Origin: Inquilinus limosus
GTDB lineage: Bacteria > Pseudomonadota > Alphaproteobacteria > DSM-16000 > Inquilinaceae
NCBI GenBank assembly: GCA_019508225.1
Contig: JAEKLZ010000157.1
Span: 1-54,359, forward strand
Direction of reading: 5' to 3'
DNA length: 54,359 nucleotides
The number at the start of each line of letters is the position of its first letter. Position 1 is the first letter of the stretch. Made by a program: the position numbers and the translations under genes. Below the pieces are notes generated by a model. The model was not told the DNA's origin and did not search any database. It was given only the letters and a program-made list of their open reading frames with translations. Positions 1,092 through 2,586 of the stretch are shown here, piece after piece.

Positions 1092-1158
1092 CAAAAAGAG
1101 GCCGGGGCCTGAGGGCCCCGGCGAGGTCAGGGAGGAAAGCGGCTCATGCGGAGCCGAT
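1092..1158 (-). ncRNA. suhB/MmgR (alpha-r8) family small RNA
   Basis: The minus strand reads CGGCTC-cgcat-GAGCCG (hairpin), then C-TTTCCTCCCT-GACCT (family-typical anti-SD core), then GCCGGGGCC-ctca-GGCCCCGGC-CTCTTTTT (terminator). A TTGACT-N17-TAACGT promoter precedes it. Confidence 0.8.
1093..1122 (-). terminator. Rho-independent terminator of the sRNA
   Basis: 9-bp perfect GC stem (1101-1109/1114-1122) followed by a T5 run on the minus strand. Confidence 0.85.
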
Positions 1159-1159
1159 G

Positions 1160-1204
1160 GATACGTTACGTATCATTCTTTCGTGAGTCAATACGGAACG
1201 TATC
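1160..1204 (-). promoter_or_regulatory. PL-like sigma70 promoter of the sRNA overlapped by two operators
   Basis: -35 TTGACT (1186-1191), 17-bp spacer, -10 TAACGT (1163-1168). Operators are ATACG-tta-CGTAT (1161-1173) and ATACG-gaa-CGTAT (1191-1203). Confidence 0.75.
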
Positions 1205-1210
1205 TACCCT

Positions 1211-1816
1211 CTAGTCGCGCATCACCCATTTGACCGGCACGGCCCACTCGATCGCGACGTCGGAGATCAGGGGGGCGTTGTAGCTGAACAGGGTGAAGAA
1301 GCCGGGGGCGCCGCCGCGCATCAGGATCTTGACGAAGGTCCGGCCGTCGGCCAGGCGGATCACGCATTCGCGGCCGATCAACTGGTCCGGATCGGCCTGC
1401 ACATTGCGGTAGTAGATGATGTCGCGGTCGCGGAAGGCGGGCGCCATCGAATCGCCGCGGACGATGACGGCGACCGTGTGCTCGTCGGCCGCCGGTGGGG
1501 CGTCCGCCTCATCGATCCGCTCGGTCGACTGGTCGCCCTCGAACATGTGGATCTCGGCGCCGGCGCCGACATGGCCCACCACCGGCACCATCGGGCGCAG
1601 GCCCGCCGGCGCGCCCTCACCGGTCAACAGCCAGGCCTCGGAGACGCCGAAGGCGGCGGCATAGCGCCCGGCGGCGTCACGGCGCAGCCCGCGCAGCCCG
1701 GATTCATGGGCGCGATAGGTGATCGGGCTCCAGCCGAAGGCGCGGGCGGCGTCGGCCGCGGTCTCGTACCCGGCCTTGGTCCGCGCCAGGACCAGGCGTT
1801 GATGTGGTTCCAGCAT
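1211..1816 (-). CDS. Phage CI-like repressor (XRE HTH plus S24 autocleavage peptidase)
   Basis: N-terminal HTH (YETAADAARAFGWSPITYRAHESG...VSEAWLLTGEG), Ala-Gly cleavage site (VGHVGAG), catalytic Ser (VRGDSM) and Lys (TFVK). The ORF track starts it at 1825; the ATG at 1816 fits the promoter geometry better. Confidence 0.9.
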   Translation of the reverse strand: MLEPHQRLVLARTKAGYETAADAARAFGWSPITYRAHESGLRGLRRDAAGRYAAAFGVSEAWLLTGEGAPAGLRPMVPVVGHVGAGAEIHMFEGDQSTERIDEADAPPAADEHTVAVIVRGDSMAPAFRDRDIIYYRNVQADPDQLIGRECVIRLADGRTFVKILMRGGAPGFFTLFSYNAPLISDVAIEWAVPVKWVMRD

Positions 1817-1825
1817 GCGCGGCAT

Positions 1826-1898
1826 TTAGCACGTTTTGTAATCCAGTGACAATTCGTTTCGTATTGCCTTAACGAGCTACGAAACGTATCGTCAATCC
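1826..1898. promoter_or_regulatory. Divergent PRM/PR-like control region with three operators
   Basis: Operators at 1829-1841 (degenerate), 1852-1864 (ATTCG-ttt-CGTAT) and 1877-1889 (CTACG-aaa-CGTAT). Plus-strand promoter TTGCCT(1864-1869)-N17-TATCGT(1887-1892). Minus-strand TTGTCA(1847-1852)-N18-TAAATG. Confidence 0.7.
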
Positions 1899-2168
1899 AT
1901 GGAACACGCGATCACGAGCTTCGATGACCTGTTCGCTCGGTGGCCGAGGCAGGGTCATCTCTCCACCGATCTCGGCGTCTCGCCGCAGCATCTGCGGATG
2001 ATGCGGGTGCGCCGGTCGGTCCCGGTGCGCTTCTGGCCGCGCTTCGTCGCCGCGGCCGCCCGGCGCGGCATCGCCGGTGTCGACTACGACCTGCTGGTCC
2101 GGCTGCACGCCGAGGAGGCATCGCAGCGCCCTCGACGCCACTCAACCCCATCACGGAGAAAACCATGA
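1899..2168 (+). CDS. Cro-like small DNA-binding protein
   Basis: Short HTH-like protein divergent from the CI-like gene (SFDDLFARWP...LSTDLGVS...RRSVPVRFWPRFVAAA), typical of alphaproteobacterial prophage Cro proteins. Confidence 0.7.
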   Translation: MEHAITSFDDLFARWPRQGHLSTDLGVSPQHLRMMRVRRSVPVRFWPRFVAAAARRGIAGVDYDLLVRLHAEEASQRPRRHSTPSRRKP

Positions 2169-2392
2169 GCACCCTGCCGACCCTCGATGAGATCGAGGGC
2201 ATGCCGATCGCCGCAGTCGCGGCACTGCCGGCCGAAGCGTTGGCGCAGCTGGTCGACGACCTGGTCGTGCTGGTCGAGCACAGCCGCCGGCTGCAGGCGG
2301 TGATCGCCGCCGCGCTGGCCTTGCGCAGCGGCGGGCCGGTCATCCGGCTCGCCGGCGGCCAAGCGGCTGACGCGACGCGGTGGCTGCGATGA
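2165..2392 (+). CDS. Phage-like hypothetical protein (75 aa, MSTLPTLDEIEGMPIAAVAALPAEAL...)
   Basis: RBS GGAGA and an ATGA overlap with the cro stop. The N-terminus resembles early-region hypothetical proteins of alphaproteobacterial prophages. Confidence 0.65.
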   Translation: MSTLPTLDEIEGMPIAAVAALPAEALAQLVDDLVVLVEHSRRLQAVIAAALALRSGGPVIRLAGGQAADATRWLR

Positions 2393-2586
2393 GCGAGCTG
2401 CGCAGCAGCCTGTCGCGCCGCCAGCCGCGCCCGCCGATGGAAGCCGAGCAGCTGCGCCGGATGCGGGCCGCGGCCTGGCAGGGGCAGGGTATCGTCGTGA
2501 TCCGGCCGGAGGACGTCGAGGACGATTGGATCCGCCAGGCGATCGTGAACGAGGCCGACCGGCTGTACGGCAAGCGGAAGCCGTGA
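2389..2586 (+). CDS. Phage-like hypothetical protein (65 aa)
   Basis: ATGA overlap with the previous gene. The motif AWxxQGIVVIxPEDVxDDWxRQAIVNEADRLYG is prophage-like. Confidence 0.65.
   Translation: MSELRSSLSRRQPRPPMEAEQLRRMRAAAWQGQGIVVIRPEDVEDDWIRQAIVNEADRLYGKRKP

Follow-up and report, generated by a model that had tools for sequence, protein, structure and literature searches.

A lambdoid CI/Cro module with a predicted alpha-r8-like small RNA, conserved throughout the genus Inquilinus

Using a genome of Inquilinus limosus (GCA_019508225.1), we studied positions 1092-2586 of contig JAEKLZ010000157.1 (forward strand, 1-54,359; these 54,359 nucleotides as a whole are called the window here). 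In this module, the phage-type repressor gene cI and a divergent cro gene stand beside a predicted small RNA (sRNA). Our preferred explanation, to which we assign a probability of roughly 55%, is that an old lambdoid prophage left its immunity region here, which has been kept by purifying selection and works as a RecA-triggered switch, with the promoter PL giving the RNA and the promoter PR giving Cro, Orf2 and Orf3. The parts of the module, its synteny, its selection and its phage ancestry were established directly. It is likely a genus-wide, domesticated CI/Cro switch with sRNA output, a variant of the DicA-DicF and AlpR/PrtR kind, in which the repressor would be cleaved with the help of RecA.

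Layout and conservation of the module

As far as can be judged from the sequence, the module is laid out like a lambdoid immunity region, with divergent cI and cro genes, operators over PRM and PR, and an OL/PL region 3' of cI. An earlier description made from the letters of this DNA alone (the sequence-only reading) had described the module, and every part that it named was found in its place. The parts in detail are:

1093..1158 (-): predicted alpha-r8/suhB-like RNA of ~63-66 nt; ends deduced from promoter and U-tract
1156-1140, 1139-1123, 1122-1101 and 1097-1093 (-): 5' hairpin, unpaired core, terminator and U-tract of this RNA
1123..1139 (-): unpaired core, containing the anti-Shine-Dalgarno 10-mer TTTCCTCCCT at 1138-1129
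1163..1191 (-): PL-like promoter, TTGACT (1191-1186)-N17-TAACGT (1168-1163), read from the sequence
1160..1174: OL1, operator-like palindrome overlapping the PL -10
1190..1204: OL2, operator-like palindrome at the PL -35
1211..1816 (-): cI, 201 aa, helix-turn-helix (HTH) and S24 domain, A85-G86/S123/K163; mRNA predicted leaderless
1824..1852 (-): PRM-like promoter, TTGTCA (1852-1847)-N17-CTAAAT (1829-1824), read from the sequence; probable start ~1816-1817, at the cI ATG
1828..1842: OR3, weak operator-like site overlapping the PRM -10; matrix score 12.0
1851..1865: OR2, operator-like palindrome
1876..1890: OR1, operator-like palindrome
1864..1892 (+): PR-like promoter, TTGCCT-N17-TATCGT, from sequence and alignment; probable start ~1899, at the cro ATG
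1899..2168 (+): cro, Cro-like all-helical HTH protein; ~72 aa conserved, tail variable
2165..2392 (+): orf2, 75-aa helical protein of a small family
2389..2586 (+): orf3, 65-aa phage early-right protein

The mRNAs of cI and cro are predicted to be leaderless because PRM and PR should each start at the ATG of the gene; the lambda cI mRNA from PRM is leaderless as well. Both cro/orf2 and orf2/orf3 overlap through ATGA. Using heuristic maps of open reading frames (ORFs), which were read by eye, we saw no integrase, replication or structural gene around the module in the 54-kb window, as the sequence-only reading had stated, and no integrase, replication or virion gene of the same element in the flanks of genome G006. 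The left flank was taken from this genome because the contig of the window begins within hydA. An inducible prophage would carry such genes in the same element, and the module does not appear to be one.

In our sample of 13 Inquilinus genomes, cI was found in all 13 (89-100% identity), always adjoining hydA and together with cro, orf2 and orf3, while the far flank of the module differs between genomes. Named records that are 89-99% identical to cI all belong to Inquilinus, save one Mycobacterium sp. record with otherwise the same locus. Outside the genus, a single one of 31 genomes of the same family had a cI match at E <=1e-25 (7.6e-34; copies in the genus reach 1e-91). The ratio of non-synonymous to synonymous changes (dN/dS; pairwise Nei-Gojobori, gap-free codons, 95% bootstrap intervals) is 0.086 (0.057-0.12) for cI, close to 0.091 for hydA. 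It reaches 0.41 (0.27-0.60) for cro, 0.27 (0.16-0.41) for orf2 and 0.33 (0.22-0.47) for orf3, calculated on conserved parts only (70, 56 and 62 codons, respectively). All bootstrap intervals are below 1, and cro, orf2 and orf3 are open in each of the 13 genomes. The module is thus under purifying selection and is not a strain-specific scar, and the proposal of selection rather than decay, together with the synteny and dN/dS check suggested for it, holds across the genus. A conserved palindrome (1063-1080), which resembles a RutR-type box, lies 5' of hydA; given this site, hydA likely has its own regulation.

The product of cI matches Pfam S24 (PF00717; 35.7 bits against a cut-off of 23.3, E 7.8e-9) and the PHROG 4 repressor (E 4.2e-24), and a profile search with its HTH matches the 434 repressor. 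The best structural match of its model (predicted local distance difference test, pLDDT, 91) is the lambda repressor (3BDN, E 4.2e-7). An intact CI-like repressor with Ala-Gly, Ser and Lys had been claimed, and A85-G86, S123 and K163 are indeed present; they are identical in all 13 genomes, with G86, S123 and K163 unchanged across 28 diverse homologues. By parsimony, none of the four catalytic-site residues changed, compared to 1.37 changes at each four-fold site; this count was used instead of a four-fold-site tree length, which at 4.3 seemed inflated. The conservation demonstrates constraint on cI and not cleavage per se. The spacing of Ala-Gly, Ser and Lys presumably resembles that of LexA. 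Altogether cI appears to have an intact autocleavage apparatus, the cleavage itself being predicted, and at 201 aa with Ala-Gly present it does not look like a short, non-cleavable repressor of the DicA/RacR type.

Three operators between cI and cro and two 3' of cI had been proposed. We found five palindromes that fit the operator-like consensus GATACG-N3-CGTATC, four of them strongly and the one at 1828-1842 weakly. In a matrix scan of the 5.9-Mb genome (94% complete), the four strong sites of the module come out on top with 21-27 bits, followed by 17.2 for the next site; the matrix was built from the module sites, so that their rank is circular and the scan is informative only in that no site of equal strength occurs elsewhere. 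Since there is no second equally strong site, the CI regulon looks local, and none was found beyond the module. The shorter pattern TACG-N3-CGTA occurs 17 times in the genome; its clusters on C175 (beside a TetR-like gene) and C512 (before a RidA-like gene; both labels by eye) were considered as a CI regulon and set aside.

Among the 12 genomes that carry the RNA, five of six positions of the PL -35 are invariant, compared to none of 11 in the promoter spacer, and in the PRM region (1824-1840) all 17 positions are invariant. The TTGACT-N17-TAACGT promoter that had been called clean is present, but the word was an overstatement because a scan with the sigma-70 consensus gave no promoter in the region. 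We found no LexA box between 901 and 2700 of the window when searching for GTTC-N7-GTTC or GAAC-N7-GAAC, which we take to be the alphaproteobacterial motif. The genes recA, lexA and hfq are all present in the genome.

Cro was identified tentatively, from its position and weak profile matches: many phage loci have a cro homologue in divergent orientation to a cI homologue, and the cro profile matches Cro chains weakly (E 0.004-0.05), with structural fold matches that are not significant. Orf2 has 10 relatives among 1.84 billion representatives and matches neither Pfam nor PHROG. The idea that it is the stub of a longer phage protein was rejected, as no longer relative was found and the relatives have mostly 59-85 aa. 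In the lineage of L013 (the locus of genome G004) and L257, cro and orf2 are fused in frame to one ORF of 170 aa. Orf3 matches PHROG 19772 (E 1e-11) and AcaML1 gp19 (50%). Moreover, a prophage contig of genome G009 carries a 56% copy of orf3 between replication and terminase genes, given which phages of the likely donor type persist in the genus.

The small RNA and its origin in a phage leader

The predicted fold of the RNA (z -3.4; none of 200 shuffles was equally good) has a 5' hairpin, then an open core and finally a terminator with nine GC pairs followed by a T run. This corresponds to the suhB/alpha-r8 layout, in which an unpaired UUUCCUCCCU 10-mer would lie between a short 5' helix and a terminator. 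A scan at the Rfam gathering threshold gave no match in the window. The check with the suhB (MmgR) model RF00519, which had been recommended for this region, gave a divided answer: suhB is the best match (E 6e-4; the next among sRNAs is SorX), at 27.7 bits, below the cut-off of 41. The genome also has two canonical suhB copies, with scores of 58.5 and 52.1 bits. In the reverse direction, a model from 13 module RNA copies finds a canonical suhB copy as the next-best genome-wide match in four of four carrier genomes, and this reciprocal model reaches the canonical copies at E ~1e-4. The core is invariant at 17 of 17 positions with no parsimony change in the 12 carriers, whereas the adjoining spacers (promoter spacer and post-terminator stretch) show 3.2-3.4 changes per site. 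The alpha-r8/suhB-like reading of the RNA is therefore upheld by the 10-mer, the top Rfam match and a core held by selection. A further suhB-like match below the threshold (29.8 bits) was noted at G000:C529:7927-8004, and most genomes of the genus have an equal-scoring match.

Where does this RNA come from? The prophage repressors closest to cI are those of L044 (in genome G009), L045, L068 and L199 (in genome G010); in L044, genes for an integrase, exonuclease VIII and RecT follow. In three of these four loci (L044, L068 and L199), a CCTCCCT-plus-hairpin element forms the leader of the PL operon: cI is followed by TTGACA, a -10 element, a hairpin, CCTCCCTG, a GC hairpin, CCTTTC or CCCTTCT, a ribosome-binding site (RBS) and an ORF, and then by early-left genes. 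The search for the same linkage of cI and RNA in phages, which the sequence-only reading had called for, was thus successful. Its option of a newly wired circuit was dropped, as the closest prophage repressors already carry the element directly after PL. Judged by these loci, the RNA is the surviving leader of a phage PL operon, and its wiring was inherited. Comparable elements occur on the cro side in L058, L083, L084, L105 and L214. The combination CCTCCCT-plus-hairpin was also seen 5' of a Mu-like head protease/capsid region (L139) and before early or late genes in the viral contigs L158, L161 and L164.

Within 55 non-redundant loci (69 collapsed to 56 clusters, from which the module copy L067 was removed), nine of 13 motif matches fall into early zones, which make up 12.7% of the sequence (p 4e-6). 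With a slightly different motif rule, eight matches lie in and three outside the early zones, and the motif ranks first of 384 hexamers. This enrichment test is partly circular, as five loci were known before the rule was fixed, and the in-zone matches of L048 and L166 are doubtful. Exact 16-nt core patterns gave 69 and 10 matches in viral contigs, mostly by chance and without hairpins. The RNA model R1 finds the phage leaders weakly (L068: 14.2 bits, E 0.17; L044 was not found), so that the leaders are regarded as homologous for their position and anatomy and not for the model score.

We suggest that the early-left genes behind the PL leader were deleted and that a short U-run was lengthened to become the end of a stand-alone RNA; the terminator of the ancestral leader was likely leaky. 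It is conceivable, and we put it forward tentatively, that some alphaproteobacterial lambdoid phages carry their own alpha-r8-like anti-Shine-Dalgarno RNAs as leaders at PL, PR and late-gene sites, and that Inquilinus turned one of these, together with its CI/Cro switch, into a bistable, LexA-independent damage circuit of the chromosome that represses translation. If this is true, the module captures the birth of a host sRNA gene out of a phage leader, and it would point to a route for the multiplication of alpha-r8 siblings.

Such an origin also raises the question of whether the element acts in cis, either as a terminator of cI and PL that shields hydA or as a gate opened by Cro, Orf2 or Orf3 for damage read-through into hydA. 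PL faces hydA, which begins ~110 nt beyond the hairpin in all 13 genomes, and the elements in phage loci occupy positions of lambdoid terminators (after PL, after cro, before late genes). Furthermore, the core of the phage leaders in L068, L199 and L084 is predicted to pair with the RBS immediately downstream. In the module, unlike in the phage leaders, neither a gene nor an RBS follows the hairpin, the U-tract has 4-6 U in 10 of 12 carriers compared to 2-3 in phage leaders, and hydA has its conserved palindrome. A plain terminator would not hold 17 unpaired bases invariant. We consider a role in cis improbable.

A damage-responsive switch and competing explanations

In the RecA-triggered switch that we favour, CI would bind the palindromes, repress PL and PR and regulate itself from PRM. 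Activated RecA would stimulate its cleavage at Ala85-Gly86, and Cro would drive shut-off or bistability; these steps are modelled on lambda and LexA biology. After damage, an anti-Shine-Dalgarno RNA of the Hfq type would be made from PL, and Cro, Orf2 and Orf3 from PR. If the RNA acts as MmgR and SisA do, its UUUCCUCCCU core could pair with GGGAGG-type ribosome-binding sites and dampen translation, which would make the RNA a damage-induced sibling beside the two ordinary suhB copies.

Several of our results weigh against this explanation. The RNA stays under the suhB gathering score, and its stems are conserved without significant covariation (61 of 500 shuffles were as high). The 297 candidates from target prediction did not form a coherent class. 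In an independent set of mostly short and distant loci (54, of which 23 were dropped as duplicates), none of the remaining 31 had the phage-leader motif; the motif is therefore a feature of some phages and not of all. Since 167 of the 201 CI residues are invariant in the genus, the conservation of the catalytic residues is not exceptional there. The transcript and its induction by damage are both inferred. The stretch from the cI stop (1211) to the RNA contains no terminator, and the cI mRNA would therefore end at the hairpin of the RNA, so that PL is maybe not its sole source; the RNA could be the constitutive 3' end of the cI mRNA, with a basal form in the absence of damage. In two soil metatranscriptomes, 5-10% of words matched. 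X2 contigs of relatives cover most of 1008-1801 at a depth of 2-6, one of them spanning the terminator, and an X1 contig covers cro; these contigs count as no evidence because they are unstranded and may be DNA.

Finally, the RNA has been lost in one of the 13 genomes. In G004, the 3' arm of the terminator is deleted, the core and the -35 have decayed, and no relocated copy of the RNA was found. As G004 nests within the genus tree, beside L008/L009 with a support of 0.93, its state represents a loss. The metagenome copies L256, L257 and L259 have the same deletion, with a half-decayed core in two of them, while six other copies keep the RNA, two being altered at the 3' end of the core. Where the cro side could be read (L013, L256 and L257), the copies with the deleted terminator retain cI, cro, orf2 and orf3. 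Because a lineage without the RNA keeps these four genes, the RNA is not the sole reason for the retention of the module. Selection on the core apparently acts only as long as the RNA keeps an end of its own, a pattern that fits a discrete base-pairing RNA.

The module might also be a superinfection-immunity cassette, in which CI is retained as a silencer of related phages that enter the cell and the remainder serves autoregulation. Related prophages are still found in the genus; their CI is 65% identical to that of the module, and their operators are similar, with CATACGTTTTGTATG at PL and PR of the G009 prophage. However, G009 holds such a prophage in addition to an intact module, and the predicted recognition helices of the two CI proteins differ. 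Immunity requires neither the cleavage residues, which DicA and RogA have lost, nor an invariant RNA core or selected orf2 and orf3. An immunity cassette therefore has a small probability in our view, similar to that of the role in cis.

Less probable still is an addiction-like trap, where cI is kept because the derepressed products of PR and PL are toxic, as for DicA and RacR, and the module brings no benefit. That cI is much more constrained than cro, orf2 and orf3 fits such a trap, and DicB and DicF are reported to be toxic on overexpression. Toxic passengers should, however, gather inactivating changes, whereas the three genes are intact throughout the genus with dN/dS intervals below 1. 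The least probable explanation is a remote control of a conserved head-tail cluster via Cro, Orf2 or Orf3, similar to PrtR/PrtN or RogA/GafYZ: the major head gene is present in 12 of 13 genomes and lies ~24-91 kb from the module in five same-contig assemblies, but in G004, G006, G007 and G008 a second cI-like gene stands upstream of the cluster itself, and no TACR-N3-YGTA site occurs in the stretches that contain it.

Known systems and neighbouring observations

One of the closest parallels is the Qin dicA-dicC/dicBF region of E. coli. As described in bioRxiv 2023.04.14.536235, a cI/cro pair of a cryptic prophage represses an operon with a trans-acting sRNA and small proteins there, and the system is bistable. 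DicA, a protein of 135 aa, has no Ala-Gly bond and is inducible neither by mitomycin C nor by RecA, and DicF is cut from a long mRNA within a larger prophage. The repressor of the module, in contrast, has the full S24 apparatus, the RNA is the entire predicted PL transcript and the other phage genes are gone. In P. aeruginosa, AlpR/AlpA and PrtR/PrtN also involve chromosomal CI/LexA-like repressors; AlpR and PrtR autocleave and run damage responses beside LexA, and their output is an antiterminator or activator for lysis and pyocin genes (PMC12796719). For the module we found no regulon at a distance, and its output is predicted to be an sRNA and three small proteins.

Alpha-r8/suhB/MmgR/SisA-D (RF00519) and SorX (RF02784) share a 5' hairpin, the exact UUUCCUCCCU 10-mer and a terminator with the module RNA, and the siblings of this type have independent promoters (PMC12559287, PMC1273637). 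With a 10-mer of this kind, SisA represses numerous mRNAs (PMC12559287). The module RNA differs in scoring under the Rfam cut-off, in not adjoining the FGase gene and in its place under a phage repressor; the accessible portions of the alpha-r8 and SorX accounts mention no link to damage or phages (PMC12559287, PMC1273637). Caulobacter RogA-GafYZ likewise features a domesticated repressor with HTH and S24-like domains in an alphaproteobacterium, but RogA is without catalytic residues and governs a gene transfer agent (GTA; PMC9632790). Lambda PreS (LPR1), which we liken to the RNA by its description, is an Hfq-bound sRNA of a lambdoid early-left operon that serves an active phage and activates dnaN (bioRxiv 2024.10.31.621285). 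A search of the open literature found neither the module nor an alpha-r8-like RNA controlled by a phage repressor; subscription literature was outside its scope, and a 2016 alpha-r8 phylogeny may mention phage-linked copies.

The module makes prophage domestication traceable, as the likely ancestor type in the same genus, the retained form and an RNA-losing lineage are all visible. If induction by damage is true, it would combine a cleavable-CI switch with an sRNA output, which neither DicF nor AlpR/PrtR does. The alpha-r8 family, associated with carbon and nitrogen physiology, would moreover be linked to DNA damage and phage leaders.

A second cI-like gene was found at G006:C1:4365720-4366253 (L023). 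It is ~60% identical over most of its length, with a different HTH and with Ala-Gly, Ser and Lys present. The gene or an orthologue occurs in all 12 genomes of the genus other than G000, in whose assembly it is absent. Two phage-like genes follow it in the four genomes examined, one of which we take to be a candidate DUF6456/GafZ-like gene. In G004, the second cI-like gene leads directly into portal, protease, capsid and tail genes. The head-tail cluster at G000:C63:11400-24700 (L242) comprises portal, protease, major head, neck, tail terminator and tape measure genes; its major head gene is 81-100% identical where present, and a terminase-like gene lies on C451. The cluster could be a GTA- or tailocin-like element or a set of repeated prophage remnants.

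In Methylocella, Methylocapsa and related uncultured bacteria (L049-L054, L057 and L062), a solitary cI relative with 43-47% identity has a PL-like promoter of its own, which precedes a small ORF; the L062 copy is flanked by genes that by eye resemble mrp and moaA. These loci may represent an independent domestication with protein output. Elsewhere in the window, positions 13855-34780 contain an ORF of 3536 aa and a cluster that by eye resembles TonB/ExbBD and outer-membrane secretion genes.

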